Source of the DNA: Macrostomum lignano
Lineage: Eukaryota
DNA: 64,000 bases
Direction: 5' to 3'
Assembly (NCBI GenBank): GCA_002269645.1
Contig: NIVC01001903.1
Coordinates: 1 to 64,000, forward strand
In this document: positions 323-48,972 of the stretch, piece by piece
How positions within the stretch are numbered: the first letter of the stretch is position 1
How the letters are laid out: every line of letters begins with the position of its first letter
Position numbers and translations under genes: made by a program
Notes under the pieces: generated by a model
Databases searched by the model: none
Told to the model about the DNA's origin: nothing
What the model saw: the letters and a program-made list of their open reading frames with translations, nothing else

Positions 323-1364
323 TGAAGTACAGGCTGTTTCTCGGGGTGGCCTGGTAGGTCTTTGAATCCACCGCTGCCACCAGTGAAGTACAATGGGTTT
401 CTTCCCGGTTTAAGGCCCTTGGTGATTAGCTTAAACCTCGAGCCTCTTCAGTGGGAAGTCCTTTCAGCGCGCAGTAGCGTAGGTAGTGCTGCCACCAGTT
501 CCTTCAGGTCTCGGCCTTCGATGAGGTGAGCTTCCCGTCGAACGAAATAAACAAGTCAACGAACTCAGCACAGCGTGCAGATTTGCAGATTAATGAACAA
601 GGCGTCCTGATCAGCAGATCCCCGCCGGGCTCAGGGGTGACTGGGAAGGCAGTGTTAGCCCCTTAGGCTTGGGCTTTAGTGGGGTCTCAGTCAGACCAGT
701 ACAAACGGATTCAGTACGCAAAGGGCACTTAGTTAGACACTGACGCACACGGGTTCTTAGTGAATTCTCCGCAGATAAGAAGCCTTTCCTTGACGGAAAC
801 AAGGGAGAGGGGTCCTATTTATAGCCGGGAAACACCCACGCACAAGACCTCGTGACTTGTTCTATTTTTAGAACTGACGTCACTTGAGTCTCGGGCAGGG
901 TCTCAGTGCGCGCAAGACCTCGTGACTCGTTCTATTTTTAGAACTGACGTCACTTAAGGTCTCCGGCCAGAGTACACGCGGCTGTGACTCAGTTGCTATT
1001 TTTAGCAACATGAGTCACTCCTCTCCTTAGAGAAGGGAGGGGTCCGAAAGCACGTGATTCTCCCGGTAAACAGGGCCAACGAGTGCAGTAAACATGTTTA
1101 CTGCACTTTAGGACTCGAAGAACGCAGAGTCTGTCATGTGACTTGCTCACATGACAGAGGAAAACGGGACGGGAACGAAACAGAGACAGCCCACAGCAGA
1201 GAAGCTGAGGGTTGAGAACAGAGACGCAGAAGGGCAGAACAGGCCAAGGGCAGCAACAGACGGGCCAAGGGGGGGAAGCTGACCAGCGCAGACAGCAACC
1301 AGGGCGAGGGCGAGGGAGACTGCTGACAAAGTGGGCGCCTAACACCAACTAGCGGATCACTACA
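323..1364 (-). repeat. 3' LTR (LTR1), including a 61-bp terminal extension (323-383)
   Basis: Matches LTR2/LTR3 from 384 to 1364. Preceded on the minus strand by PPT GGGAGAG (1365-1371). TATA box TATAAATA at 816-823 (minus). Confidence 0.92.
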
Positions 1365-1890
1365 CTCTCCCGTTCAAATGAAGAGGCGGAGTGAGAGCGA
1401 AGCGCGCTTTATTTAATAAACGAAATAGTGATTTTACTAAATAAACTTATTACAAATGCCTGGCAAAAGGATGGCAGTGTCACAAGGCATGCAAATTATT
1501 ACACGGCTGGGCCAAGGTCAGGATTGTGACAAAATGGCGAAGCACCAATAGCACCGGTGGGTTGCCCACGCCAAGGCAGAGCCCTAGAAAATCATAAAAT
1601 CGGAGGGGCTGGCAAGTCCCTCGGGCGTACGCAGAATCAGGACCTCAGTCCAACAGCGGTTTGGGGGCGCCGGCCCGGAAAATGGGCGCCTAAATATACG
1701 GGATACCATAGACAGCCGGCAGAGCCCGTCACTGGGAGAAGGGGGATGCAGAACTGCATCAGAGCAACAGCTCACGGGAAGATAAAAGAGTACGCATTGC
1801 GGGGGCGCTGGCCGCTATTGAGGCGCCACATAAAGTAGAGCAGGGAAAAATCAGAGGGTGCCTGTCAGCACCAAGTCCACAGAGTCAGAG

Positions 1891-4800
1891 TTAATCGCTG
1901 CGTTGGGTTGATCGGTGCACGCAGATGCGGGCAGTGCGACTAACATACGTCTTGGCCCTAGGATTAATAATTAGCCTCTCAGGCTGCCTACGATTCCTAG
2001 CCGGCCTACCGACATCTACAGACCCTAATGACGCTTCCACCGGAGTGGTGCATAACGACGGCCCAGGGGTCTGGACCACAGAAAAAGCAGCACTGGGAGC
2101 GGGAGCAGAAACGGGCGGAAAAGAAACAGCAGGCATAGACGCATCAAGAACAGGCTTATGCAGATGACATTCACCATACGGCACTGGCTCACGCCGAAGT
2201 GCACTTGCCTGGTTCGCTGGTGTCGTGACCGGTCCACCTCCTGGCTGCACCTCCGGGATCGCCAAAGGCCGGAAGTGCCATCGGAAGGCCGGCCTTGCGT
2301 CGTAGCCGTCATCATCGTCATCGTCGGGGTCGTCCTGGTCGTCCTCGGGATTGGCGTCAGGGTCGCGGGTCCTGCGCCGTCGGGGACGTCGGGCGGCCGC
2401 CGGCGTTTCTTCGGTTTGTCGACTTCAGGGTCCGAAGTTCTCGTGTAGTCAGCGTCAGGCACGAGCAGAAGGTTCCGGCGATGGACGACTAGTTCGTCTC
2501 GTCTGGCTCTCGGGTTGGGCAGTCTCCGTCGAATCTTGTAGACGACCTCGCCCTTGGGCTCGACGACTTCGTATAGGGCTTTGCGAGGTCGATGAAACTT
2601 CGCCGCCTCATCCGGTTCGAGTACCGGGTTGTTGAGGAAGACCAGATCACCGGGTTGAAGCTTCGTGGCGGCGGGCAGGTTCGAATAGTGCTCGTCTCGC
2701 AGTTGCTGGTGCAGATGCAGGCGCTCCTTGGCTAGCTCAGTCGCCTCGTCCAGGCGACGTTGGAAGTCCTTGACGTAGTCGGGCAGGTCGGCGTACTCGG
2801 GCAGCTTCTTCAGCGCGTTGTCGATCGGAGTCGGAAATCACGGCCGAACACCAGGTAGTGAGGCGTGAAGCCGGTCACCGGGTGCACGCTGGAGCGGAGA
2901 GCCATCAGACAGGCCGGGAGGAAGGTGTCCCAGTCGTTGTGGTTGCGCTCGAGCAGACAGGTGAGGACACTCTTCAGCTGTTTGTTGAGGTTCTCGACTT
3001 GTCCGTTGGAAGCTGGATTGTACGGTGTTGTTGTCGTATGCCGAATGCCAAACAGGTCGCAGAACTTCTTGAAGGCCGAGCCGGTGAAGTTGGTGCCTTG
3101 GTCGGTGTGGATCCAGCATGGTACACCGAACTCAGGGATGAAGCGCTCCTGCAGAAGCTTGATGACTGTTTTGGCTTTCTGGTTTCTCATCGGGTAGGCG
3201 AATGGATACTTCGACGTCGCATCGCACAAGGTCAGGATGTAGCGGTTGCCGCTCTTGCTCTTCTGCGCGATTGGTCCTACTACATCACAGTGGATTCTAC
3301 CCAGAACTTCGCAGACTGGGAAGCTCTGGACCGGACTCTCTCTCGCCGTCGCGATTTACTTTCAAGGCAGGTGCGGCACTTACTGATGAAGGTCTTGGTA
3401 GCACGGGCTAATCCGGGTCTCCAGAACCGTTCTCGTAGCCGCAGTAACGTCTTCGTCTCGCCAAGGTGTCCACACAGTGGCGAACTGTGGAGCTCCTGGA
3501 GCACCTGGGCGTCAAGGGCCTCAGGCAGAACAACCTTTGGCGGCTGCTGGCCATCGGACAGGTCAATCAGCAGCAGGCCGTTGTCCTCCTGCAGGTTTCG
3601 TAGTATCCGAGCAGGTTCCGCTGCTCCTTCGTCAGGCGCAACCGGGCGTCGAACTCAGGCTTCGGGGCTTCGTCCTTGACCAGGTTGAGCACGTAGCTGA
3701 TGGCTCGGTCAGCGCGCTGGGCTTCAACGAACTGTTGGCGAGTCATCGGCAGCTTCAGAATATCAGTGAGCACAGCGCGGCATGGCTGAGGGGTCCGGAT
3801 TCCCGCAGTCTCCGCTTTAATGGCTCCAGGTCGATCACACGGCACCGTCTTGTCGGCGTCAGGATTAGGTCGCTCCGAGGGACTTTGTCTCACGACGTCG
3901 GCGTACGTCCGTTGATCTCGAATCGAAGTTCTCTTCATCGCTCTCATGACAGAAGATTCCGCAGATGGAGCAGCGCGCATGCCTCCACTGCATAGCACAG
4001 GCGACTCTTGGCTGTAGGGCGGGACGCAACACGTGAAGCACGCCTCGTCGCAGGCAGCCGTAGCCGTCGGCTCAGTCGTCGTCAAAATTGGGTGAGTCTT
4101 CTCCAGCACTGGGCGGTGTCGCAAAGGGGGACTCGACTTTCCGCACAGGCGATGAGCAGCTGTCTGTCGGCCCGGGGGACAGAGCTTCGACCTTGCAGCT
4201 GGCGCGAGATTCTGGCCCCTGTCAACATGGCGAGAGATCTCAGCGAAAGGCTCAGGAGGGTTGTACTTAAGTTGCTGTCCTGGAGTTGCGTTGCGGGCCG
4301 TCATCAGAAGGGCTGCGGCGCGGTGGCCTTTGAATCTTGGTCCGTGGGCGTCTCCAGATTCCGAGACCTGAGTCTTGGGCGTCGTCAAGGAGGTCTGTGT
4401 TCACAGTGGCCTCAAGGTCTTCGTCCAGGTTGGTCTCCAAGTTGCGGTAGGCGGAATGGGCATCGCGGCAGAGGGCTGTTGTCGCAGTGGCCTCTGAGTT
4501 GTCGTCCAGGCCGGTCTCCAGGCGTTGACTGCAGCGGTGGGCGTCGTGCTGGAAGGCTGCTGGCGCAGTGGCTTCCAGGTCTTCGTCCAGGTCAGTCTTG
4601 GCCTCCAAGCAGCGAGAGTGGACTGTCTTCTGGAGGGCTGCTCTGGCAGTGGCCTCGGGTGTCGGGTCCAAATCCGGTTCCAGGTCGTGGTCGTCACCGG
4701 GTCGGGCGTAGAACCAGGTTGCTCTAGCAGTCGGCCATGCTCGAAGAAGATCGGCGGGCCCTCCGGTCTTCTTGACAGGGCATCAGCGTTGGCGTGGTCC

Positions 4801-7158
4801 TTGCCTTTGCGGTGGTTGAGCTGGAAGCGGAACTCGCTTAGGCGCTCGATCCAGCGGCCTAAAATACCTGTGGCCTGAGTTTGGTTCAGTAACCACAGTA
4901 AGGCCCGATGATCGGATCGAACTTCAAACTTCTTGCCGATTAAGTAATGACGGAAATGTCGCATAGCGTCCACAATTGCAAGCAGCTCTTTCTTCGTGAC
5001 CGTGTAGCGCTTCTCAGGATCGCGAAGTTTACGGCTAAAGAATGCAATTGGACGTTCGACGCCGTCGGATTGCAGTTGTCCAAGACAAGCGCCTATTCGA
5101 ATATCAGAGGCATCCGTGTCGAGGACAAACTTCACAGCAGGATCAGAATTAAATTCAGGCAGAGCGAGAACTTCAGTAGAACACAATTTCTTCTTCAAAG
5201 TGTCGAACGCTACCTGATGCTCGGGAGTCCAATGCTGCCGTAGGCTGCCAATGTCCTTTCGCGTCAGGGCATGCAGCGGCGCAGCCACTCCAGCGTAGCC
5301 GTCGACAAACTTGTGGTAGTAATTGGCGAGGCCTAGGAATTGTCTCAGTTGAGTAACGGACTGTGGCACGGGCCAATCACGGATCTGCGCAATCTTGTCC
5401 TCACAGGTCTTCAGGCCGTCGGGAGTCACGACGTGACCTAAATAATGCAGCTCTTGAGGAACAAATGACACTTCTTCGGTTTCACTTTGAGGTTGGCTGC
5501 GATGATGCGCTGAAGTACAGTTCGCAAGTTATCCAGCTGTTCCTCGAAAGTCACTGAGTGCACCACGATGTCGTCCATGTAGCCAAGCGCAGTCTTTGGC
5601 GTCAGCCGTCCAGGAGCTTATTGATGCAACGCTGAAAGCTGCCAGGACTGTCGTGGAGACCCATCGGTAGAACGTTGAAACAGAATTGGCCGCGGTCGAT
5701 TACTGAGAATGCCGTCAAGTGCTGGTCGCAGTCGCGCAGCGGGATCTGCCAGAATCCTTGAGCAAGGTCCAAGCTAGAATACCACTGAGCACCACGAAGC
5801 TTCGCGAAGGTTTCCTGGATGTGCGGGAGCGGATACGGGTGATACACACACCTGTCGTTGAGAGCTCTGAAGTCGTGGACTAGTCGGATGTTGCCGTCCT
5901 TCTTGGGCACGATGAGCATTGGCGAATTGTAGCTCGAGTAGGCAGGGCGAATGATGTGCTTCGCCAGCATCTCGTCTAGCAGGGCGTCGAGTTTGTCCTT
6001 CAGATGAGGCGGGATTCGGCGCGGTGGTAGCGCGACTGGTGTCCGGTCCTTCAAGATGATCTCGTGGGTCACCAGGTGAGTCAGGCCGGCGTCTAGCGAG
6101 TGCTTGGAGAAGGCCGCTTGACATTCGACTAGTAGATCTCGCACTCTTTGATGTTGTTCTTTGGACAATTCGCTGTTGATCTCGACTTCATCTAGCCATG
6201 CTGTGCTGGACTCTTCAGAGTTCTTCGGGAGGTGCCGCACTTCAGGTTCGGGCGTCTCGCTCAAGTACATCAGGTCGGCAGTTCGGAGTGGCGTCGCAAC
6301 ACCAACACGGATACCGGCTTGCAGGAACACCTCGCTGTCGGCGGTGTTGACGACCTCAATGTAGCCGCGACCTTCAGGCATCGTCATCAGAGCAGGCGCT
6401 GCTTCCAGAGCGTTGCAGCTGGGATGCAGCCTCGACTTAACCAGCTCGACAATTGATGGCGATCCTCGATTCTCAGGGTGGCCGTCATCCAGTCTGACGG
6501 CAAGCAGCGCTGAACTTCTAGGCGGCAGGGTGCACTTCTCAGAGGTGTACACTCGGCAGTTCTGAAGCTCACGCCGCGAATAACGAACAGGGATGCACGT
6601 GCCATTGTTGAACGTTAGCATTCCTTGAGCGAAGTCCAAGTTCTGGCAGTGCTCTCGCATAAACGATACGCCAAGCAAATTTTCACAATCGGAGACCGTA
6701 ACGAGGAATTCGGTGTCCGCGACGACATCACCGAACTCCACCGGTATGGTCACCTTACAAGCAAGCGGGAGCTGCGTCCCGTCATACATAGTTACGCAAT
6801 CGGGAATAGCATGCGATATAATACAACGAGGCATCCGGCGTCTAATAGCGGCCCAGGTTGACGAACCGAGGAAGTTTTTCCGGCTGCCGCTGTCTAGCAA
6901 GAAAGGGACCTCTCGACTCGCCACTCGACCTGTGACGTACGGATCGGCCTCACGCGCATGGATTTTTTGATTCGGGGAGGTGTCCACGAAACCTCCGCAC
7001 TCAGCGTCGCTTACTGACGAGCGACTGTCGGACTGGGCATTGGCGCCTGCGCAGCCGACATCCTCTTCTTCTCGCGACCGTTCTGAATCTGCCAAGTAGC
7101 CTGGGCTTGGACCTCGCGGAGGGCGGTGCCGTTGTCGCTCTCCGCCTGGCCGTTTCCC
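1891..7158 (-). CDS. pol: Pol (copy 1), with additional 1-nt deletions relative to copy 2
   Basis: ORFs 5602-7095, 4401-5471, 3567-4388, 3280-3504, 2810-3229, 2025-2462 and 1891-2265 are colinear with copy 2. Confidence 0.85.
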
Positions 7159-8185
7159 TGGTTTGGCGCATCGGGCACTGGGTGTTGCGATGACCGGGCT
7201 GTCCGCAGCTATAGCAGATTATAGCTCTCTTTGGCGGGCTGGCTACCTGCTGTTGGTCACGCTGCACCAGGTGATCCAGCATTCGCTGCTGCTTCTCGAT
7301 CAAGTCGGTTAGAGTCAGCAAGGCTTGGGCGGTGACGTCGGGTTTCGGGTCGCCGTCCTCCTCCCCGTCCAACATCCTAACCGGGGGTTGAGCAGATCGG
7401 TGCGCCAATTCTTTGGCGCCTTCTAGTCGTCGTAGCTCTCGAATCGCAGCAAGAAGATTGTTCGGGCGAACCCAGTACAGCCGTTCGCGCAGATCTGGAG
7501 TCGTCCGGATACCAGCAAGAAATTGATCAGTAATCTCCTTCTCGCGGTCTTCAGGATGCATTCGAGGATATGCACGTTCACCCAGAGTTCTCAGGGCGTC
7601 AGCAAACTCTTCTGCTGACTCATTCTTGCCTTGTTGACGACGTCGCAACAGTTCTCGATACTCATCAGCACCACCATGACGGGCAAATCGCTCAATCAGA
7701 CGTTGCTTGACCTCCTCGTAGCTGGCGAAACGCGGAAGATTCATACCAAGCAAGGCTGGATACGCAGTAGCCAAATCGAGACTCGCGATGAGGTGTTGCT
7801 TCATCTCGAACGGGTCGACGATGCGCTCCATCTCGCAACGCTGCTCGAACGCGGCAAGCCAGACATGAATGTCCTGATTTGGAGTAAACTTCACAATTTT
7901 AACTTGTTTACTCACGGGCCGCTCCATCTGCTGCTGCAGAGCTGCCATCATGGTCCTGACGTCTTGGTGCGTGATGTTCCGGCCAATGTTGTCCAGGCCT
8001 TGCAGAAGCTCGTCTGGCGGGTCGTCGGACACGTCGCTTCTCGCACCTTGCCTCGGCGTTGGCTGCTGACCAAAGTCGTTGACCGCTGCCGCGGCTGCGG
8101 CGGCTTCTGCGGCCGCAGGCCTCGAACTGCTGATGTGCTGATCCAGCCGGCTGCTGCACCGGCTCTCGTCTCGCTCGTTGAACAT
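7011..8185 (-). CDS. gag: Gag (copy 1), one extra 1-nt deletion near the 3' end
   Basis: Same sequence as copy 2 except ggtttggc vs ggttttggc at about 7160. Confidence 0.85.
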
Positions 8186-8276
8186 GTTGACTTGTCGTAG
8201 TCGCTGGCCGATGTCGTTCTCGAAAGAGCGGTTGCCTTGGGTGTGTCGTAGTCGGATCTCACCGCTGCGTCACCAG

Positions 8277-9267
8277 TGAAGTACACGCTGTTTGCTTCCC
8301 GTATTAGGCCCTTGCGGATTACCTTAAACCTCGAGCCTCTTCAGTGGGAAGTCCTTTCAGCGCGCAGTAGCGTAGGTAGTGCTGCCACCAGTTCCTTCAG
8401 GTCTCGGCCTTCGATGAGGTGAGCTTCCCGTCGGAACGAAATAAACAAGTCAACGAACTCAGCACAGCGTGCAGATTTGCAGATTAATGAACAAGGCGTC
8501 CTGATCAGCAGATCCCCGCCGGGCTCAGGGGTGACTGGGAAGGCAGTGTTAGCCTCCCTTAGGCTTGGGCTTTAGTGGGGTCTCAGTCAGACCAGTACAA
8601 ACGGATTCAGTACGCAAAGGGCACTTAGTTAGACACTGACGCACACGGGTTCTTAGTGAATTCTCCGCAGATAAGAAGCCTTTCCTTGACGGAAACAAGG
8701 GGAGAGGGGTCCTATTTATAGCCGGGAAACACCCACGCACAAGACCTCGTGACTTGTTCTATTTTTAGAACTGACGTCACTTGAGGTCTCGGGCAGGGTC
8801 TCAGTGCGCGCAAGACCTCGTGACTCGTTCTATTTTTAGAACTGACGTCACTTAAGGTCTCCGGCCAGAGTACACGCGGCTGTGACTCAGTTGCTATTTT
8901 TAGCAACATGAGTCACTCCTCTCCTTAGAGAAGGGAGGGGTCCGAAAGCACGTGATTCTCCCGGTAAACAGGGCCAACGAGTGCAGTAAACATGTTTACT
9001 GCACTTTAGGACTCGAAGAACGCAGAGTCTGTCATGTGACTTGCTCACATGACAGAGGAAAACGGGACGGGAACGAAACAGAGACAGCCCACAGCAGAGA
9101 AGCTGAGGGCTGAGAACAGAGACGCAGAAGGGCAGAACAGGCCAAGGGCAGCAACAGACGGGCCAAGGGGGCGGGAAGCTGACCAGCGGCAGACAGCAAC
9201 CCAGGGCGAGGGCGAGGGAGACTGCTGACAAAGTGGGACGCCTAACACCAACTAGCGGATCACTACA
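8277..9267 (-). repeat. Shared middle LTR (LTR2, 991 bp)
   Basis: TGTAGTGA...TGTACTTCA on the minus strand. PPT (GGGGAGAG, 9268-9275) on one side and PBS (8258-8275) on the other. Confidence 0.95.
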
Positions 9268-9797
9268 CTCTCCCCGTTCAAATGAAGAGGCGGAGTGAGA
9301 GCGAAGCGCGCTTTATTTAATAAACGAAATAGTGATTTTACTAAATAAATTATTACAAATGCCTGGCAAAAGGATGGCAGTGTCACAAGGCATGCAAATT
9401 ATTACACGGCTGGGCCAAGGTCAGGATTGTGACCCAAAATGGCGAAGCACCAATAGCACCGGTGGGTTGCCCACGCCAAGGCAGAGCCCTAGAAAATCAT
9501 AAAATCGGAGGGGCTGGCAAGTCCCTCGGGCGTACGCAGAATCAGGACCTCAGTCCAACAGCGGTTTGGGGGCGCCGGCCCGGAAAATGGGCGCCTAAAT
9601 ATACGGGATACCATAGACAGCCGGCAGAGCCCGTCACTGGGGAGAAGGGGGATGCAGAACTGCATCAGAGCAACAGCTCACGGGAAGATAAAAGAGTACG
9701 CATTGCGGGGGCGCTGGCCCGCTATTGAGGCGCCACATAAAGTAGAGCAGGGAAAAATCAGAGGGTGCCTGTCAGCACCAAGTCCACAGAGTCAGAG

Positions 9798-12700
9798 TTA
9801 ATCGCTGCGTTGGGTTGATCGGTGCACGCAGATGCGGGCAGTGCGACTAACATACGTCTTGGCCCTAGGATTAATAATTAGCCTCTCAGGCTGCCTACGA
9901 TTCCTAGCCGGCCTACCGACATCTACAGACCCTAATGACGCTTCCACCGGAGTGGTGCATAACGACGGCCCAGGGGTCTGGACCACAGAAAAAGCAGCAC
10001 TGGGAGCGGGAGCAGAAACGGGCGGAAAAGAAACAGCAGGCATAGACGCATCAAGAACAGGCTTATGCAGATGACATTCACCATACGGCACTGGCTCACG
10101 CCGAAGTGCACTTGCCTGGTTCGCTGGTGTCGTGACCGGTCCACCTCCTGGCTGCACCTCCGGGATCGCCAAAGGCCGGAAGTGCCATCGGAAGGCCGGC
10201 CTTGCGTCGTAGCCGTCATCATCGTCATCGTCGGGGTCGTCCTGGTCGTCCTCGGGATTGGCGTCAGGGTCGCGGGTCCTGCGCCGTCGGGGACGTCGGG
10301 CGGCCGCCGGCGTTTCTTCGGTTTGTCGACTTCAGGGTCCGAAGTTCTCGTGTAGTCAGCGTCAGGCACGAGCAGAAGGTTCCGGCGATGGACGACTAGT
10401 TCGTCTCGTCTGGCTCTCGGGTTGGGCAGTCTCCGTCGAATCTTGTAGACGACCTCGCCCTTGGGCTCGACGACTTCGTATAGGGCTTTGCGAGGTCGAT
10501 GAAACTTCGCCGCCTCATCCGGTTCGAGTACCGGGTTGTTGAGGAAGACCAGATCACCGGGTTGAAGCTTCGTGGCGGCGGGCAGGTTCGAATAGTGCTC
10601 GTCTCGCAGTTGCTGGTGCAGATGCAGGCGCTCCTTGGCTAGCTCAGTCGCCTCGTCCAGGCGACGTTGGAAGTCCTTGACGTAGTCGGGCAGGTCGGCG
10701 TACTCGGGCAGCTTCTTCAGCGCGTTGTCGATCGGGAGTCGGAAATCACGGCCGAACACCAGGTAGTGAGGCGTGAAGCCGGTCACCGGGTGCACGCTGG
10801 AGCGGAGAGCCATCAGACAGGCCGGGAGGAAGGTGTCCCAGTCGTTGTGGTTGCGCTCGAGCAGACAGGTGAGGACACTCTTCAGCTGTTTGTTGAGGTT
10901 CTCGACTTGTCCGTTGGAAGCTGGATTGTACGGTGTTGTTGTCGTATGCCGAATGCCAAACAGGTCGCAGAACTTCTTGAAGGCCGAGCCGGTGAAGTTG
11001 GTGCCTTGGTCGGTGTGGATCCAGCATGGTACACCGAACTCAGGGATGAAGCGCTCCTGCAGAAGCTTGATGACTGTTTTGGCTTTCTGGTTTCTCATCG
11101 GGTAGGCGAATGGATACTTCGACGTCGCATCGCACAAGGTCAGGATGTAGCGGTTGCCGCTCTTGCTCTTCTGCGCGATTGGTCCTACTACATCACAGTG
11201 GATTCTACCCAGAACTTCGCAGACTGGGAAGCTCTGGACCGGAACTCTCTCTCGCCGTCGCGATTTACTTTCAAGGCAGGTGCGGCACTTACTGATGAAG
11301 GTCTTGGTAGCACGGGCTAATCCGGGTCTCCAGAACCGTTCTCGTAGCCGCAGTAACGTCTTCGTCTCGCCAAGGTGTCCACACAGTGGCGAACTGTGGA
11401 GCTCCTGGAGCACCTGGGCGTCAAGGGCCTCAGGCAGAACAACCTTTGGCGGCTGCTGGCCATCGGACAGGTCAATCAGCAGCAGGCCGTTGTCCTCCTG
11501 CAGGTTTCGTAGTATCCGAGCAGGTTCCGCTGCTCCTTCGTCAGGCGCAACCGGGCGTCGAACTCAGGCTTCGGGGCTTCGTCCTTGACCAGGTTGAGCA
11601 CGTAGCTGATGGCTCGGTCAGCGCGCTGGGCTTCAACGAACTGTTGGCGAGTCATCGGCAGCTTCAGAATATCAGTGAGCACAGCGCGGCATGGCTGAGG
11701 GGTCCGGATTCCCGCAGTCTCCGCTTTAATGGCTCCAGGTCGATCACACGGCACCGTCTTGTCGGCGTCAGGATTAGGTCGCTCCGAGGGACTTTGTCTC
11801 ACGACGTCGGCGTACGTCCGTTGATCTCGAATCGAAGTTCTCTTCATCGCTCTCATGACAGAAGATTCCGCAGATGGAGCAGCGCGCATGCCTCCACTGC
11901 ATAGCACAGGCGACTCTTGGCTGTAGGGCGGGACGCAACACGTGAAGCACGCCTCGTCGCAGGCAGCCGTAGCCGTCGGCTCAGTCGTCGTCAAAATTGG
12001 GTGAGTCTTCTCCAGCACTGGGCGGTGTCGCAAAGGGGGACTCGACTTTCCGCACAGGCGATGAGCAGCTGTCTGTCGGCCCGGGGGACAGAGCTTCGAC
12101 CTTGCAGCTGGCGCGAGATTCTGGCCCCTGTCAACATGGCGAGAGATCTCAGCGAAAGGCTCAGGAGGGTTGTACTTAAGTTGCTGTCCTGGAGTTGCGT
12201 TGCGGGCCGTCATCAGAAGGGCTGCCGGCGCGGTGGCCTTTGAATCTTGGTCCGTGGGCGTCTCCAGATTCCGAGACCTGAGGTCTTGGGCGTCGTCAAG
12301 GAGGTCTGTGTTCACAGTGGCCTCAAGGTCTTCGTCCAGGTTGGTCTCCAAGTTGCGGTAGGCGGATGGGCATCGCGGCAGAGGGCTGTTGTCGCAGTGG
12401 CCTCTGAGTTGTCGTCCAGGCCGGTCTCCAGGCGTTGACTGCAGCGGTGGGCGTCGTGCTGGAAGGCTGCTGGCGCAGTGGCTTCCAGGTCTTCGTCCAG
12501 GTCAGTCTTGGCCTCCAAGCAGCGAGAGTGGACTGTCTTCTGGAGGGCTGCTCTGGCAGTGGCCTCGGGTGTCGGGTCCAAATCCGGTTCCAGGTCGTGG
12601 TCGTCACCGGGTCGGGCGGTAGAACCAGGTTGCTCTAGCAGTCGGCCATGCTCGAAGAAGATCGGCGGGCCCTCCGGTCTTCTTGACAGGGCATCAGCGT

Positions 12701-15070
12701 TGGCGTGGTCCTTGCCTTTGCGGTGGTTGAGCTGGAAGCGGAACTCGCTTAGGCGCTCGATCCAGCGGCCTAAAATACCTGTGGCCTGAGTTTGGTTCAG
12801 TAACCACAGTAAGGCCCGATGATCGGATCGAACTTCAAACTTCTTGCCGATTAAGTAATGACGGAAATGTCGCATAGCGTCCACAATTGCAAGCAGCTCT
12901 TTCTTCGTGACCGTGTAGCGCTTCTCAGGATCGCGAAGTTTACGGCTAAAGAATGCAATTGGACGTTCGACGCCGTCGGATTGCAGTTGTCCAAGACAAG
13001 CGCCTATTCGAATATCAGAGGCATCCGTGTCGAGGACAAACTTCACAGCAGGATCAGAATTAAATTCAGGCAGAGCGAGAACTTCAGTAGAACACAATTT
13101 CTTCTTCAAAGTGTCGAACGCTACCTGATGCTCGGGAGTCCAATGCTGCCGTAGGCTGCCAATGTCCTTTCGCGTCAGGGCATGCAGCGGCGCAGCCACT
13201 CCAGCGTAGCCGTCGACAAACTTGTGGTAGTAATTGGCGAGGCCTAGGAATTGTCTCAGTTGAGTAACGGACTGTGGCACGGGCCAATCACGGATCTGCG
13301 CAATCTTGTCCTCACAGGTCTTCAGGCCGTCGGGAGTCACGACGTGACCTAAATAATGCAGCTCTTTGAGGAACAAATGACACTTCTTCGGTTTCACTTT
13401 GAGGTTGGCTGCGATGATGCGCTGAAGTACAGTTCGCAAGTTATCCAGCTGTTCCTCGAAAGTCACTGAGTGCACCACGATGTCGTCCATGTAGCCAAGC
13501 GCAGTCTTTGGCGTCAGCCGTCCAGGAGCTTATTGATGCAACGCTGAAAGCTGCCAGGACTGTCGTGGAGACCCATCGGTAGAACGTTGAAACAGAATTG
13601 GCCGCGGTCGATTACTGAGAATGCCGTCAAGTGCTGGTCGCAGTCGCGCAGCGGGATCTGCCAGAATCCTTGAGCAAGGTCCAAGCTAGAATACCACTGA
13701 GCACCACGAAGCTTCGCGAAGGTTTCCTGGATGTGCGGGAGCGGATACGGGTGATACACACACCTGTCGTTGAGAGCTCTGAAGTCGTGGACTAGTCGGA
13801 TGTTGCCGTCCTTCTTGGGCACGATGAGCATTGGCGAATTGTAGCTCGAGTAGGCAGGGCGAATGATGTGCTTCGCCAGCATCTCGTCTAGCAGGGCGTC
13901 GAGTTTGTCCTTCAGATGAGGCGGGATTCGGCGCGGTGGTAGCGCGACTGGTGTCCGGTCCTTCAAGATGATCTCGTGGGTCACCAGGTGAGTCAGGCCG
14001 GCGTCTAGCGAGTGCTTGGAGAAGGCCGCTTGACATTCGACTAGTAGATCTCGCACTCTTTGATGTTGTTCTTTGGACAATTCGCTGTTGATCTCGACTT
14101 CATCTAGCCATGCTGTGCTGGACTCTTCAGAGTTCTTCGGGAGGTGCCGCACTTCAGGTTCGGGCGTCTCGCTCAAGTACATCAGGTCGGCAGTTCGGAG
14201 TGGCGTCGCAACACCAACACGGATACCGGCTTGCAGGAACACCTCGCTGTCGGCGGTGTTGACGACCTCAATGTAGCCGCGACCTTCAGGCATCGTCATC
14301 AGAGCAGGCGCTGCTTCCAGAGCGTTGCAGCTGGGATGCAGCCTCGACTTAACCAGCTCGACAATTGATGGCGATCCTCGATTCTCAGGGTGGCCGTCAT
14401 CCAGTCTGACGGCAAGCAGCGCTGAACTTCTAGGCGGCAGGGTGCACTTCTCAGAGGTGTACACTCGGCAGTTCTGAAGCTCACGCCGCGAATAACGAAC
14501 AGGGATGCACGTGCCATTGTTGAACGTTAGCATTCCTTGAGCGAAGTCCAAGTTCTGGCAGTGCTCTCGCATAAACGATACGCCAAGCAAATTTTCACAA
14601 TCGGAGACCGTAACGAGGAATTCGGTGTCCGCGACGACATCACCGAACTCCACCGGTATGGTCACCTTACAAGCAAGCGGGAGCTGCGTCCCGTCATACA
14701 TAGTTACGCAATCGGGAATAGCATGCGATATAATACAACGAGGCATCCGGCGTCTAATAGCGGCCCAGGTTGACGAACCGAGGAAGTTTTTCCGGCTGCC
14801 GCTGTCTAGCAAGAAAGGGACCTCTCGACTCGCCACTCGACCTGTGACGTACGGATCGGCCTCACGCGCATGGATTTTTTGATTCGGGGAGGTGTCCACG
14901 AAACCTCCGCACTCAGCGTCGCTTACTGACGAGCGACTGTCGGACTGGGCATTGGCGCCTGCGCAGCCGACATCCTCTTCTTCTCGCGACCGTTCTGAAT
15001 CTGCCAAGTAGCCTGGGCTTGGACCTCGCGGAGGGCGGTGCCGTTGTCGCTCTCCGCCTGGCCGTTTCCC
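9798..15070 (-). CDS. pol: Pol (copy 2): protease, RT, RNase H, long linker, integrase; broken by a few 1-nt frameshifts
   Basis: LLDSGS (PR), YMDD (RT), DTDAS...E...SDH (RH), H-x6-H...C-x2-C and DDE core (IN), C-terminal RPARNRRQPERL motif. Spread over ORFs 13514-15091, 12312-13490, 11476-12351, 9932-11413 and 9798-10172. Confidence 0.9.
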
Positions 15071-16098
15071 TGGTTTTGGCGCATCGGGCACTGGGTGTTG
15101 CGATGACCGGGCTGTCCGCAGCTATAGCAGATTATAGCTCTCTTTGGCGGGCTGGCTACCTGCTGTTGGTCACGCTGCACCAGGTGATCCAGCATTCGCT
15201 GCTGCTTCTCGATCAAGTCGGTTAGAGTCAGCAAGGCTTGGGCGGTGACGTCGGGTTTCGGGTCGCCGTCCTCCTCCCCGTCCAACATCCTAACCGGGGG
15301 TTGAGCAGATCGGTGCGCCAATTCTTTGGCGCCTTCTAGTCGTCGTAGCTCTCGAATCGCAGCAAGAAGATTGTTCGGGCGAACCCAGTACAGCCGTTCG
15401 CGCAGATCTGGAGTCGTCCGGATACCAGCAAGAAATTGATCAGTAATCTCCTTCTCGCGGTCTTCAGGATGCATTCGAGGATATGCACGTTCACCCAGAG
15501 TTCTCAGGGCGTCAGCAAACTCTTCTGCTGACTCATTCTTGCCTTGTTGACGACGTCGCAACAGTTCTCGATACTCATCAGCACCACCATGACGGGCAAA
15601 TCGCTCAATCAGACGTTGCTTGACCTCCTCGTAGCTGGCGAAACGCGGAAGATTCATACCAAGCAAGGCTGGATACGCAGTAGCCAAATCGAGACTCGCG
15701 ATGAGGTGTTGCTTCATCTCGAACGGGTCGACGATGCGCTCCATCTCGCAACGCTGCTCGAACGCGGCAAGCCAGACATGAATGTCCTGATTTGGAGTAA
15801 ACTTCACAATTTTAACTTGTTTACTCACGGGCCGCTCCATCTGCTGCTGCAGAGCTGCCATCATGGTCCTGACGTCTTGGTGCGTGATGTTCCGGCCAAT
15901 GTTGTCCAGGCCTTGCAGAAGCTCGTCTGGCGGGTCGTCGGACACGTCGCTTCTCGCACCTTGCCTCGGCGTTGGCTGCTGACCAAAGTCGTTGACCGCT
16001 GCCGCGGCTGCGGCGGCTTCTGCGGCCGCAGGCCTCGAACTGCTGATGTGCTGATCCAGCCGGCTGCTGCACCGGCTCTCGTCTCGCTCGTTGAACAT
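14923..16098 (-). CDS. gag: Gag (copy 2), 391 aa, with C-terminal CCHC zinc knuckle
   Basis: ORF track; CYSCGQPGHRNTQC knuckle; position directly after the PBS. Confidence 0.9.
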   Translation of the reverse strand: MFNERDESRCSSRLDQHISSSRPAAAEAAAAAAAVNDFGQQPTPRQGARSDVSDDPPDELLQGLDNIGRNITHQDVRTMMAALQQQMERPVSKQVKIVKFTPNQDIHVWLAAFEQRCEMERIVDPFEMKQHLIASLDLATAYPALLGMNLPRFASYEEVKQRLIERFARHGGADEYRELLRRRQQGKNESAEEFADALRTLGERAYPRMHPEDREKEITDQFLAGIRTTPDLRERLYWVRPNNLLAAIRELRRLEGAKELAHRSAQPPVRMLDGEEDGDPKPDVTAQALLTLTDLIEKQQRMLDHLVQRDQQQVASPPKRAIICYSCGQPGHRNTQCPMRQNQGNGQAESDNGTALREVQAQATWQIQNGREKKRMSAAQAPMPSPTVARQ

Positions 16099-16170
16099 GT
16101 TGACTTGTCGTAGTCGCTGGCCGATGTCGTTCTCGAAAGAGCGGTTGCCTTGGGTGTGTCGTAGTCGGAT

Positions 16171-16188
16171 CTCACCGCTGCGTCACCA
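16171..16188 (-). promoter_or_regulatory. Primer-binding site, degenerate tRNA-Leu type (TGGTGACGCAGCGGTGAG); same at 8258-8275
   Basis: Begins TGG 1 nt after the LTR end; resembles the complement of the tRNA-Leu 3' end (TGGTGGCAGCGGTGGGATT) with a 2-nt-longer, mismatched segment after TGGTG. Confidence 0.75.
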
Positions 16189-16189
16189 G

Positions 16190-17181
16190 TGAAGTACACG
16201 CTGTTTGCTTCCCGTATTAGGCCCTTGCGGATTACCTTAAACCTCGAGCCTCTTCAGTGGGAAGTCCTTTCAGCGCGCAGTAGCGTAGGTAGTGCTGCCA
16301 CCAGTTCCTTCAGGTCTCGGCCTTCGATGAGGTGAGCTTCCCGTCGGAACGAAATAAACAAGTCAACGAACTCAGCACAGCGTGCAGATTTGCAGATTAA
16401 TGAACAAGGCGTCCTGATCAGCAGATCCCCGCCGGGCTCAGGGGTGACTGGGAAGGCAGTGTTAGCCTCCCTTAGGCTTGGGCTTTAGTGGGGTCTCAGT
16501 CAGACCAGTACAAACGGATTCAGTACGCAAAGGGCACTTAGTTAGACACTGACGCACACGGGTTCTTAGTGAATTCTCCGCAGATAAGAAGCCTTTCCTT
16601 GACGGAAACAAGGGGAGAGGGGTCCTATTTATAGCCGGGAAACACCCACGCACAAGACCTCGTGACTTGTTCTATTTTTAGAACTGACGTCACTTGAGGT
16701 CTCGGGGCAGGGTCTCAGTGCGCGCAAGACCTCGTGACTCGTTCTATTTTTAGAACTGACGTCACTTAAGGTCTCCGGCCAGAGTACACGCGGCTGTGAC
16801 TCAGTTGCTATTTTTAGCAACATGAGTCACTCCTCTCCTTAGAGAAGGGAGGGGTCCGAAAGCACGTGATTCTCCCGGTAAACAGGGCCAACGAGTGCAG
16901 TAAACATGTTTACTGCACTTTAGGACTCGAAGAACGCAGAGTCTGTCATGTGACTTGCTCACATGACAGAGGAAAACGGGACGGGAACGAAACAGAGACA
17001 GCCCACAGCAGAGAAGCTGAGGGCTGAGAACAGAGACGCAGAAGGGCAGAACAGGCCAAGGGCAGCAACAGACGGGCCAAGGGGGCGGGAAGCTGACCAG
17101 CGGCAGACAGCAACCCAGGGCGAGGGCGAGGGAGACTGCTGACAAAGTGGGACGCCTAACACCAACTAGCGGATCACTACA
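16190..17181 (-). repeat. 5' LTR (LTR3, 992 bp)
   Basis: Essentially identical to LTR2; followed by PBS 16171-16188 and gag. Confidence 0.95.
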
Positions 17182-17821
17182 AATATAAAAGCTTTTATAC
17201 TATAGTTTAGATGGTACAGCATGGTATACTAGAAAAAAGACTCTTTTGTAATAATATGGTAAAAAATTAATAAAACAATAAAGGACCTTTTTGCAATTGT
17301 GACAATAAAAAACCATATTTGTAGCTATGAAATTTGAAATAAAATGCTATTGACTTTGCTAAAAACTTTCCTATAAAATTTGGAAAAAGCCAAAATTTGT
17401 AACAATTGTACATAAAAATAAAGTTTTTTTTTCAAATTTCATAGTGCATGTAATTTAAAAGAATAAAATTATTGCAACATGTAATTTTGTATTTATAAAA
17501 GTTTTGAAGTTTTGATGGGTATAAGTTTGTGTGCCAAAAATTTACTTGAGTTGAAAGTGGTATGCCAAAGTGGTTTATGCAAAAACAGTTAAACTATTCA
17601 CTAGTATGTGTAACAGTTGCCTATTATTTTGCCTATTTGCCTAATTTTGTCTATTTTGTCTATTGATTTCACATATAAATATGACTATTTTTCTAAAACT
17701 ACAAGAAATTATCTGTGCGTACATAAATAAATATTTTATATCATTAGTAGTAATTATTAGTTTCGATTAGTGGCCTACCGTATAATCTAGTGCTTTATTA
17801 GTTTAAATGCATCCGCCATTT

Positions 17822-41200: not shown

Positions 41201-44200
41201 TGAGTTTCTGATTGGTTGGGTGAGAGGCTACCTAGACTTTCTTGATTGGGTGATCCCTTATTTGTCTCCTATTTCAGTAGCTGGATTAGGCGCACACTTT
41301 TGCTCATTTTTTCAGCAGTGCTGTTTTTGAGGCAGAAATCATTCAATAATACTGTTAGTAGTCCGAAACTCCATTCAATCTGAAGTGTGAAGTGATTTAA
41401 GGAGAAGGTTAAATCTGACAGTTATTTTTATCGGTTTTATTTCTTTGTTCGCCGATGGCTCAGATGAGTAGCTAAGCTAGTAGGCGCCGGTCACAGTGGA
41501 CCAATGGCAAGTCAGTCCTCAGTCGATCAATCTATCAAATCAGTTAGCAAAATTGCCAATAGTGCAGAATCGGCGCCAGAGATGTACTCTGTGCACCCTA
41601 GATTCGCCAAGCGGCTCGGGTAATGAATCATGCGGTCTCTGGAGTTTGAGTTAGTCTATCATCAGCGCTACGAGAGGCTGGTTGGCCCGTTGAAGGCCAA
41701 AAGTACAATTCTTCGTATTTAGCAATGTAATAGTACATGTAGCTACCCAATAGTCTCGCCACTGCAAGAATCGCCTGCACAAGTCCCCTCTGTACCTGCA
41801 TGGCCAATGCGATCTAGTCCCAGCAGTGTCCCTTATCATCAGCTATGACTTCGAGATCGACAGCAAAAAGACACTAGTTGGCAGGTAAGTGCAAAGCCCC
41901 TTCTAGTCGGAAGCCCGATTTCGAGAGTTCCGGTGTGGTGAGCCAGGACGTACGGGCTGGTGGCAGCGAGTTAGCTTAGTCTGCGGATTAGCTAATTTCT
42001 ACCTTCAAAATTCTCCCTACTTGTCTCTCGCTGTCCCTCTCTTAGCTATAGGACCTAGACAGCTCGCCACAAGATCAAGCTACCATGGGGCTGACCATCT
42101 GACAGGAGTGGGGGGGCCAGGTCTCTAAGTGATTTGTTTCTGAGACCTGAGGCCCGAAGGCTTCCCCACAAGGGGGCCGAAAGGTCGAAACCTATCACAA
42201 TCATCATCACCTTGAGCACTCTCCTGAACATCAAGCAACAATCATCACCTTGAGCACTCTCCTGAACATCAAGCAACAATCATCACCTTGAGCACTCTCC
42301 TCAAAATCGAGCAACAATCATCACTTTGAGCGCACTCCTCAATCTTCGTGCACATTGGTTATCTTGTAAGTACTTTAAGAAAAACCGATAGTCATTAAAA
42401 ACAACTTAAGACTCGACAGGTCAGAAAGAAATAACGAAGCAATCAAGCTCTCACCTGAAGACTCTGCCGCGATGTTCGACTCAATGGTCGCCTATTGGTG
42501 CTGCTAAGTTTAGACGAAGACGCGGTGCCAGCGCCGGAACCGCCGCCGCCGGAGCCACCGCCGCCAACAGCTATCGAAGGAGGCATGAGGCGACCGGTGC
42601 CGCCACGTTCTCCTGGTCGGAGGGAGCTTCGTCTCCTGCCCGCAGCTCCGCCGCCAGAGCTTGCGTAGTGACCAGAGCCGCCGCCGCCACCGCTGGCTCC
42701 TCCGTCGGTTCGACTGACCGCCCGTACGGTGAATGGCGAGCCGCGAATGTGCTCGCCCAGCATCTTCACGCTCAGCTCAAAGTTGCCCTCCTCTTCTAGC
42801 TGGAAGCGCACCTTCACCGTGTTTCTATCCTGCATGACGGCGACAAAGTGGGATTTTTCAAACGGCGAGGCGAGGCTGGCGACGCAATTTAGCGAGCCGA
42901 GGATGCTGGGATCCACTTTGTGGTTGCGATAGTCGCGCGGCACCACCGTCACCTGGTGCTCCTCGCGGATGGAGCACGACCGCAGATCGTGCTCGTTTTC
43001 CAACGTCGAGTTCGAGGCCTCGACGCTGCCCATGGCAACTAGGCCGGCTCGATGAATATGGCTGAACACCTGACCAGGAGGGGAGAAGAAAGACGTCAGG
43101 TCTCCGAAGCTCCGAACCCATAAGCTCCAAGTTCCACCCTTCTGCGATTACGTACATATAAGAGCTCTGAGCTAGAAATACAGATTAGTAGCACTGATAT
43201 TGAAACTAGGGGCAGAGCAGCGCGTCGGTAAACGCGTCTCACTCTTGCGGCGTGACTCCTAGTTAGTTTCTGATCGCAGCCACACTTAATTCCGGGGCTT
43301 GTCGTGCGACTCAAACCGCCGATGAGGGTCAATCCACACTGTGTACGAGTACTCTGACTATGAGAAATCACACCACGAAATATAGTGCACCACATTGTTT
43401 TTTTGTCATTCTCCGTCCGGAGGCAGGAAAAAATCGTCAGTTTTTTTAAGGGGTTTTTGCAAGATCTGGCTTCCTACATGCACACTGCAATAAACTCTAG
43501 GAGCTAGATTTTCGAGTCCCTGGGGTGCAAATTGCCAAATCTCATTGGGGGAATCTCGTCGGAAGAATCTCGTCGGGAAAATATCTTCCCGGGAATCTCG
43601 TCGGAAGAATCTCGTCGGGAAAATATCTTCCCGGGAATCTCGTCGGAAGAATCTCGTCGGGAAAATATCTTCCCGGGAATCTCGTCGGAAGAATCTCGTC
43701 GGGAAAATATCTTCCCGGAATCTCGTCGGAAGAATCTCGTCGGGAAAATATCTTCCCGGGAATCTCATCGGAAGAATCTCGTCGGGAAAATATCTTCCCG
43801 GGAATCTCATCGGAAGAATCTCGTCGGGAAAATATCTTCCCGGGAATCTCATCGGAAGAATCTCGTCGGGAAAATATCTTCCCGGGAATCTCATCGGAAG
43901 AATCTCGTCGGGAGAATCTCGTCGGGGAATCTCGTCAGGAAGAATCTCACCTGGTCCAAATCGGTTGGATAGTACGAGATCGAGTCGTCCTCGCTCGGAT
44001 ATGCTTTCGGCTTATTCTTTGCTAGCTTGGCGTAGCCTCGAAGTTCCGCCCGGCCCGTCTTTGGATCCAACCGGCCGTTCATGCCGTCCAGACGCTTCAG
44101 CGCGGCCGTCATCTCGTCATCGAAGCCGGCAATCTGAGCTGCCTCTTTGTGCGCCGCTTCCGTTCGCGCTGTCAACAGTTCGTCCAGAGTCTCGCCTAAT

Positions 44201-46799: not shown

Positions 46800-47630
46800 T
46801 CAACCATGCAGCCAGCTTGATGTGGATCTGGATCGAGCAAATGACTTGTCGCCACTGTTTTGTGCTCCACCCCATTTGCCTTGCTCCCCATTTCTGTGTA
46901 ATGCTGTTGAAGTTTTTGTTTGTCTCGGTGTTTTCTCGACCGGTGTCGTCTTGAGGTGGCTTGACAGGTTTTCCATAATCCAACCGCTGCCACCAATGTT
47001 GTACCTGTGGTTGTCAGGTTGTGCTACCACAGAGATCTTGGGTTGTCTCAGGCTCTCTCTCTTGCTAGGAGCCTACTTATCAGTAGCGTTGGTAGTTGCT
47101 GCCACCAGTCCCTTCGGGTCTCAGCCTTCGGTGAGGTGAGGATCCCGTCGGAACGAAATAACAAAGACGAGCGAACACTCGTCTGGGAGAACGGTGCTAC
47201 GCTCTCCCATGCTCTGAATAATTCATCCATGGCGAGACCCCGATTTCGTCGACGTCAGATTGCATGACGCTATTGGTATTTTTAGCAACTGACGCTAGGG
47301 TCTTGCTTTAGAGAAAGCAAGGGTCCCGGAGCGCGTGATTTCTGCCATAAACACGGACCTATTGTGCAGTGAAGAACTCACTGCACTCTGGACTTCCGAG
47401 AAAACAGAGCTTGTCATGTGACTGGCTCACATGACAAGAGGAAAGCGGCCCACAGTGAAGCCACTACATGTAGTGACTGCTACACAGAGAGTGAACCAAG
47501 AGCAGGTCAAGTCGCCCAGCCCTGCAAAAAGGAGCATCGTCGCGGGGCGGCTCAGAGCGAGGGCGAGGGAAACTGCTGACTAGAGTGAGAGACGTAATTG
47601 CCAATGCAGTAATCCTAGTGGCTCACTACA
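46800..47630 (-). mobile_element. Truncated Gypsy element related to the 323-17181 family: 5' LTR 46997-47630, tRNA-Leu PBS 46977-46995, short leader
   Basis: TGTAGTGA start; shared blocks with LTR1-3 (gcagtagcgt.ggtag..gctgccaccag..ccttc.ggtctc.gccttcg.tgaggtgag); PBS TGGTGGCAGCGGTTGGATT. Confidence 0.85.
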
Positions 47631-48058
47631 CTATATAATAACTTCAAGACGGACAAATAACCATTCTCTTGTGAGCCTCTAAAGTACTGTATTTATAAAG
47701 TAAGCTCGTTGCACTCGTATAGTGCATCCAAGTATACATGTAAATAAATTACTATAATTCTATCACTTTGAATCTGGGCATCCATAGGACACGCGCGTGC
47801 ATAACCCATGCCATTATGGCTGAGCTATATGCAAGTTTCCTTACCGGATAAAATGTAGATGCGTAACAACTAAAATGTATATACTCTCGAATCATCGATG
47901 AGCACACAGTTATATTTTTTTAGGCTGAGTCGCATTTTAGCGAGTGCCGACTCAGTGCAGATACTACATGTACTTAAAGGGGCATTAGACGGTCTAATCT
48001 GGGGGGGGGGGAACTTGAAGGCTTGCATATTTATCATTTTTGTGTTCTTCTATTCTAT

Positions 48059-48972
<914 letters not shown>

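Follow-up and report, generated by a model that had tools for sequence, protein, structure and literature searches.

The LTRs of a tRNA-Leu-primed Ty3/gypsy clade in the flatworm Macrostomum lignano carry, at the U5 end, zero to three copies of a short unit that appears to be a heritable PBS-plus-att module and has probably been gained, lost and transferred between families during reverse transcription. Gain, loss and transfer at this step are likely because every unit starts with the same 18-nt primer site. The case described here lies in a 64,000-nt stretch of contig NIVC01001903.1 (hereafter, the window), in which one unit extends the 3′ LTR of a tandem retrotransposon.

The tandem occupies positions 323–17181 on the minus strand in the order LTR3-internal-LTR2-internal-LTR1, with one TSD flanking the whole array (Table 1). 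It is a Ty3/gypsy element, as characterized by TG...CA direct LTRs, a TSD, a PBS, a polypurine tract and an integrase that follows RT/RNase H. Pfam analysis of five natural frames of copy 2 gave zf-CCHC, RVT_1, RT_RNaseH, Integrase_H2C2 and rve, in that order. Gmr1 proper has an integrase-first layout, which is excluded by this domain order. The best named RT relatives by identity were M. lignano proteins (59–60%), one of which matches this genome at 100%, and an RT tree, built without clade reference elements, placed the window element in one lineage with two M. lignano proteins. The two internal copies exhibit no substitutions between them, and LTR1 differs from LTR2 by one substitution in the upstream 932 nt, which is also present on the duplicate contig C2137. 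The 46 nt preceding the unit also differ from LTR2 and LTR3, with nine substitutions plus indels between the U5 motif described below and the end, a feature overlooked by the earlier sequence-only reading of this DNA. Both the tip and the unit of LTR1 are closely related to those of an element on contig C890.

Table 1. Features of the tandem element and of a related solo LTR in the window
Feature	Position	Strand	Remarks
TSD, 3′ copy	319–322	−	4 bp, TATT on minus strand; matches 17182–17185
LTR1	323–1364	−	3′ LTR, carries one unit
Unit	323–383	−	61 nt: 1-nt spacer (383), tRNA-Leu PBS, constant core, variable tip ending CA (integrated end)
Unit tip	323–339	−	Copies differ at positions −12 to −8 and −5; CA at the end is constant
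Core boxes	345–358	−	CCTACC (358–353), GCCACC (350–345); predicted pairing with own PBS
Inner PBS	366–382	−	Complement of 3′ end of host tRNA-Leu(AAG/TAG)
Primary U5 tip of LTR1	384–430	−	Unlike LTR2/LTR3; close to that of C890 element
U5 motif in LTR1	482–497	−	Clade-wide; first 10 nt of PBS, then CTACC
TATA-like box	823–817	−	Inside LTR1
Internal region, copy 1	1365–8276	−	gag + pol; pol in several frames in this assembly
Polypurine tract	1371–1365	−	Ahead of LTR1
True PBS, copy 1	8256–8275	−	2-nt bulge and one mismatch to tRNA-Leu
LTR2	8277–9267	−	Middle, no unit; 0 substitutions vs LTR3
Internal region, copy 2	9268–16189	−	zf-CCHC, RT, RNase H, integrase
Bulged PBS, copy 2	16188–16169	−	
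LTR3	16190–17181	−	5′ LTR, no unit
TSD, 5′ copy	17182–17185 (17185–17182)	−	4 bp, TATT preceding LTR3
Older solo LTR	46908–47630	−	Same clade, decayed 89-nt unit (46996–46908); flanks ATAG/ACAG

Read on the minus strand, LTR1 passes from its ordinary end, TGTACTTCA (392–384), through a C (383) and the inner PBS (382–366) to a second TGTACTTCA (331–323), which TATT (322–319) directly follows; the outer end thus lies 61 bp past the primary end. The sequence-only reading had described this stretch as a PBS-att module lying between the ordinary LTR end and the TSD, absent from LTR2 and LTR3 and forming the integrated end, and all of this was borne out. The exact junction of PBS and core occurs 244 times in the genome, while a reversed control pattern does not occur; contig C2137 has an identical structure and flank; and contigs assembled from the short reads of four runs, one of which may be the source of the assembly, cross the stretch (one spans 200–364 and two more span 256–359 and 294–359) and bridge the junction. 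The outer end adjoins TATT, and 37 of 46 unit-bearing solo LTRs have CA and an exact TSD at the outer end of the last unit, with a near match in most of the other nine. The PBS had been called near-perfect for tRNA-Leu. Its identity was confirmed, as the inner-PBS sequence has 12 genomic matches and all eight examined are tRNA-Leu AAG or TAG genes, while its imperfection was not: an additional G in a G run is present in C2137 and in the short-read contigs of all four runs, so that the mismatch in the window is a reading error and the PBS is tRNA-perfect.

Units are widespread and variable. The LTR motif has 392 exact copies in the genome, and among its first 100 matches, units were present in 33 of 58 distinct solo LTRs, a sample drawn by LTR motif and not by unit, and in 3 of 18 distinct 3′ LTRs. 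An enrichment of units in solo LTRs relative to 3′ LTRs (p = 0.003) was considered and rejected, because it is gone in seven independent pairs of the LTR tree and is thus a lineage effect. Unit length ranges from 60 to 90 nt, of which the constant core makes up ~30 nt, and zero to three units per LTR were seen, with three at C1013. Among 49 distinct family-A units (60–65 nt), positions 19–39 show an invariance of at least 96% and the final CA does not vary, while tip positions −12 to −8 and −5 vary, the major base accounting for 37–69%; 10 of 35 unit 11-mer tips are also found as primary U5 tips. Heterotypic arrays contain two different units in both orders (C5151/C224 vs C981), and adjacent identical units occur at C1781, C1013, C910 and C1967. 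On a tree of 102 LTRs, built from the 500 nt upstream of the unit with the unit left out, unit presence changes at least 24 times, compared with 32 ± 2.5 times after shuffling, so some tree signal remains; LTRs identical over the tree columns carry zero, one or two units. The PBS was previously taken to have been captured at this locus, and the sequence behind it to be the spacer of a repeat-spacer-like stack. Neither view holds: the unit is polymorphic throughout the genome and across families, and the supposed spacer is conserved, with only the last ~12 nt varying and a core predicted to pair with its own PBS. A CRISPR-like array was likewise rejected, given the invariance of positions 19–39 in the 49 units and the lack of unrelated acquired spacers. 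The idea that LTRs grow by PBS-att modules is correct in that LTRs lengthen by whole units and incorrect in that growth is not one-way, as LTRs also shrink. Neither the tandem PBS pattern in metagenome contigs nor the PBS-core pattern in viral contigs was found, both being collections with few animal genomes.

A search in which the PBS was followed by other sequences, with 60 of its 209 matches inspected at first and more later, revealed homologous units in families A/A2, B, C and D; the family labels A–G are those of this analysis. RT/RNase H identity to the window element is 92–97% for A2, ~78% for C, ~68% for B and ~69% for D, and the primary LTRs of the unit-bearing families share only 17–21-nt matches, except A with A2. 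Over the 32 nt after the PBS, A and C units are identical at 29 positions, compared with 15 for their leaders and 11 for their primary tips. Units of B and one D type are identical at 22 of 32 positions, and the leaders and primary tips of the same family pairs at 15–19 and 11–15 positions, respectively. Unit tips resemble those of the host family, and some D units and the unit at L140 have other cores. In the sister families F and G (~60% RT identity), none of nine 5′ ends has a second PBS. Homology between unit and leader is weak (best p values of 0.002–0.09 in 40 comparisons, uncorrected).

A motif consisting of the first 9–10 nt of the PBS followed by CTACC is kept in the U5 of each of the seven (sub)families inspected, with RT identities as low as 60%, and lies 100–200 nt or more upstream of the PBS (in the window also at 8375–8390 and 16288–16303; elsewhere at L219, L222, L230 and L289–L297). 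The motif might fold into a small hairpin or pair with the two strands of the tRNA acceptor stem. A resemblance that would point to unit origin by mis-annealing at this upstream motif was found in family F only. A further PBS-like motif, with CTACC at 41958, is present at 41950–42200 on the plus strand of the window. In family B (L221, L224, L232 and L238), a short 37-nt unit retains only 12 nt of the PBS, and more remnants of the PBS lie upstream, which would suit a decay of older units from the side of the LTR. The leaders that follow the true PBS in families C (L222 and L250) and A2 (L233 and L253) contain tandem repeats starting with GATTCGA, which resembles the complement of the tRNA T-loop.

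Other features of the locus were recorded as well. Head-to-tail tandems with shared LTRs and one TSD comprise two repeats in the window and at least three at C255 (L224/L225). In the U3 of LTR1 (860–960 and 1068–1160), there is a direct repeat of 70 nt, along with a TGACGTCA palindrome and a number of short inverted repeats; a simple pattern search found no canonical heat-shock triplet array in this U3, and Rfam gave no match at the unit and one weak miRNA match (E = 0.019, below gathering) at an inverted repeat. Elsewhere in the window, ~18700–19010 matches the flanking DNA of L289 at 92%, 33900–60200 contains many unrelated minisatellite arrays with periods of 8–66 nt, and 48056–48975 contains a 312-nt inverted pair.

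Comparison of the two LTRs of single insertions provided an insight into how units are copied. We compared 48 LTR pairs, with C543 left out of the count; the elements were picked from matches, mostly by unit, and are thus a non-random sample. In 29 pairs, both LTRs carry the same number of units (at least one), 14 have none and five differ; two more (C199 and C511) swap only the tip. The unit numbers (5′/3′) of the differing pairs are 1/0 at C163, 2/1 at C1967, 2/1 at C440, 1/2 at C206 and 0/1 in the window. All seven mismatched pairs have TSDs, five of them have no more than two upstream substitutions in ~800 nt, and the tip swaps between otherwise identical LTRs of one insertion are confined to the last 20–50 nt. 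Priming at a downstream PBS, as postulated in the sequence-only reading, must have made the unit part of U5, since units occur in both LTRs of 29 of the 48 elements. Among these integrated copies, priming at the last PBS is thus implied by 29 pairs, and priming at an inner PBS by one clean pair and two compatible ones. The clean case is C163, whose 5′ LTR has one unit and 3′ LTR none; its two LTRs share one primary tip, and at the 3′ end the TSD adjoins this tip. This pattern matches the product expected from inner-PBS priming, although a slippage deletion of 7 nt could produce a similar pattern. The units concerned at C1967 and C206 are identical, and thus genomic slippage or mis-assembly is possible there. 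The window and C206, with more units at the 3′ end, would need two templates or a switch during re-copying, and the U5 tip of the window 3′ LTR, unlike those of the 5′ LTRs, fits copying from two co-packaged RNAs.

From these patterns we infer the following course of events. The tRNA-Leu would usually prime at the last PBS, whereby the upstream sequence, including any units, would be copied as U5 and the CA of the last unit would become the integrase end. If priming took place at an inner PBS, the resulting 3′ LTR would carry fewer units. Template switching from an inner PBS to that of a co-packaged RNA may add a unit, reorder units or move a unit to the LTR of another family, and switches within the first ~15 nt would swap tips. 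At the present locus, the U5 of the 3′ LTR, with its different tip and one unit, would derive from one RNA, and the U5 of the 5′ LTR, along with the bulged PBS, from another RNA that lacked a unit, through a plus-strand transfer of the Ty1/Ty3 type. For Ty1 and Ty3, it has been described that the tRNA is not the template for the PBS and that R-U5 at the end of the minus strand is where the plus strand anneals (PMC5371799). Such a route lets two LTRs take their U5 from different RNAs while sharing U3, which is the pattern seen in the window, and the persistence of bulged PBSs in 20 of 30 family-A 5′ ends would be expected of a PBS that often has another template than the tRNA. The three-LTR tandem may reflect a later or simultaneous duplication. 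The first unit might have arisen by an ancestral tandem duplication of the U5 tip, the PBS and the first ~30 nt of the leader; a duplication across the LTR end, the PBS and the start of the leader is our guess at the simplest origin.

The core is predicted to fold back on the unit PBS. The predicted hairpin consists of two 6-bp stems and a 9-nt loop over 44 nt. For the most frequent cores of A, A2, B, C and one D type, its stability is −17 to −23 kcal/mol, while 27 native PBS-plus-leader contexts gave −4 to −14 kcal/mol, no better than their shuffles. From one family to another, the loop differs, pairing persists for 11 of 12 stem partners and a single inner-stem change keeps a wobble pair; the PBS side of the stem is fixed by the tRNA, and loop and stem are equally conserved within family A, so that covariation comes from few between-family changes. 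A core variant with a longer linker is predicted to pair further, and no fold-back on the PBS was predicted for the main types of family D or the L140 unit. Shuffle tests of single cores were modest (for the commonest core, 3 of 60 shuffles were as stable). The unit PBS was costlier to open than the true one in 18 of 21 leaders (15.8 vs 13.3 kcal/mol, in related rows), but net tRNA binding of the unit PBS was overall no weaker (10 of 21), because true PBSs are often bulged. Masking of the unit PBS, if real, would be modest, kinetic and partial; it would disfavor inner priming and would thereby favor unit retention. Complementarity of the core to the tRNA D arm was also considered and rejected, as whole-LTR scans were significant only for a separate family B box (one of seven sequences), and self-pairing with the PBS may explain the two core boxes better. 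The decayed unit of the older solo LTR in the window is still predicted to fold on its PBS (−14.9 kcal/mol).

The true PBS is less regular than that of the unit. It is bulged or altered in the 20 of 30 family-A 5′ ends mentioned above, and perfect and bulged alleles coexist. True PBSs of A, C and D often have a 2-nt bulge after the first five bases (e.g., copy 1 in the window; L173, L228, L289 and L294), and those of F and G pair for only 10 nt before a break. Units were not associated with a bulged true PBS (6 of 12 with units vs 14 of 18 without, p = 0.14). In family B, the U5 (L219:1295–1317, minus strand) holds an antisense match of 22 nt to nt 1–22 at the 5′ end of tRNA-Leu(TAG), with a score of 34 against 29 for the best of 200 shuffles (p = 0.005).

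Several other explanations of the unit were weighed. That the junction is an assembly join, or that the TSD matches by chance, might be suspected from the position of the window near a contig end and from the homopolymer errors of LTR1 (eight indels); both suspicions, which the sequence-only reading had itself raised along with the restriction of the module to this site, can be set aside almost completely, as they are refuted by the 244 junctions, the identical structure and flank on C2137, the bridging short-read contigs and the position of the TSD beyond the outermost unit in 37 of 46 solo LTRs. Hardly more credible is a one-off product of this locus, formed either from a tRNA primer that stayed in place or by a small, independent TG...CA element inserted at the LTR end. 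The unit does begin with TG and end with CA, and its PBS is tRNA-perfect, but it has no duplication around itself, only the usual 1-nt LTR-PBS spacer, and no U3 sequence follows the PBS as it would at a circle junction. The unit is also present in both LTRs of many elements, and the genome-wide junctions, together with the LTR-pair comparison, refute this explanation. An independent element of the TRIM-like or solo mini-LTR type was rejected in general, because no TSD surrounds the units and units follow LTR ends (30 of the 244 junction loci inspected, the other 214 in part).

Two further explanations are more substantial and still seem unlikely to us. The unit may be kept because it benefits the element, whether by offering the tRNA another loading site, by forming a hairpin for packaging or dimerization or by acting as a decoy for 3′ tRNA fragments, with the true PBS drifting meanwhile toward a bulged form that evades these fragments. 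Consistent with this, unit PBSs are tRNA-perfect and the true PBSs of A, C and D are often bulged and altered where a fragment seed would pair, the PBS-like U5 motif is kept across the clade, and the U5 of family B has the antisense tRNA-Leu match; imperfect PBSs are also over-represented in mouse ERVs, which has been read as an escape from tRNA fragments (PMC7472051). Against it, many young full-length copies lack units (14 of the 48 pairs), units are not associated with bulged PBSs, and a PBS folded in a hairpin would be a poor decoy. We consider it a shade less probable again that the unit is a neutral tandem repeat inherited from the clade ancestor, changing mostly by post-integration slippage or unequal exchange, with the hairpin as a relic of the ancestral leader. 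Adjacent identical units, the weak folding of the native leaders of A and D on their PBS, and the lack of units in the sister families F and G, with which one origin suffices, agree with such a repeat. However, A and C units are 29/32 identical though the leaders, tips and LTRs are unalignable, heterotypic arrays occur in both orders, and tip swaps between LTRs of one insertion are limited to the last 20–50 nt.

We thus favor a module that is exchanged during reverse transcription. More tentatively, and with considerable doubt, the unit may be regarded as a selfish 60–90-nt hitchhiker of tRNA-Leu-primed retrotransposons, which would move among co-packaged families by recombination at the universal PBS, borrow the integrase tips of its hosts and hide its own PBS in a hairpin against loss by inner priming: a parasite of retrotransposons without an LTR, gene or insertion site of its own. 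Units provide a natural, countable record of the start of reverse transcription and of strand transfer in an animal Ty3/gypsy clade, in which unit number, tips and PBS alleles mark the RNA that supplied each LTR end. The data suggest that, by way of the PBS, LTR ends can pass between families with 70–80% RT identity, and this implies that different families are packaged together. As LTR ends can differ already at insertion, ages based on LTR divergence would be inflated. Since an intact PBS can be present in solo LTRs, these might serve as donors of U5 ends. As M. lignano is a laboratory animal, cDNA ends and small RNAs could be read directly. In the literature searched, which covered few subscription papers, we found no description of PBS-att arrays inside LTRs; a term search of the main text of a study on LTR elements of M. 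lignano (PMC12801592) gave no mention of PBS or tRNA, and its supplements, which may not include the family consensus files, contained none of three motifs searched.

The flatworm junction resembles the canonical U5-att-PBS junction of Ty3/gypsy elements and retroviruses in its CA end, 1-nt spacer, 18-nt tRNA complement and 4-bp TSD, and the element shares the polypurine tract and the gag-PR-RT-RH-IN order. Unlike the canonical junction, it is repeated inside the LTR in zero to three copies and is common to several families. Voronin and Pathak reportedly engineered MLV and HIV vectors with dual PBSs, in which two priming sites per RNA gave products differing by the intervening stretch; the flatworm units, in contrast, are natural and heritable and have an integrase end and a predicted self-pairing core. 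The surprising parts are the sharing of the unit across families and this core. Plus-strand transfer as described for Ty1 and Ty3 (PMC5371799) would likewise explain the persistence of bulged PBSs and a 5′ U5 taken from intact RNA, whereas PBS copies in U5 are not part of that account of the yeast elements. Because perfect and bulged PBS alleles coexist in the flatworm elements, both routes of PBS inheritance may operate. In Drosophila gypsy, which has two PBSs (PMC1635307), and in Ty3, with its bipartite PBS (PMC5371799), one RNA has more than one site for the same tRNA, as found here, but the second site as described lies at the 3′ end of the RNA, lacks an att end and is not a U5 unit of variable copy number. 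The PBS segment of HIV-1, with its primer activation signal and A-rich loop, illustrates how PBS-adjacent structure and extra tRNA contacts govern initiation (PMC11181671); the structures reported there, unlike the flatworm unit, are single-copy regulatory elements and not mobile. Complex elements with shared LTRs (PMC1950507) exhibit a three-LTR arrangement with one TSD and template switching between RNAs, as in the window, although whole elements are concerned in that report, and in the flatworm the exchanged pieces are PBS-bounded units at the LTR end.
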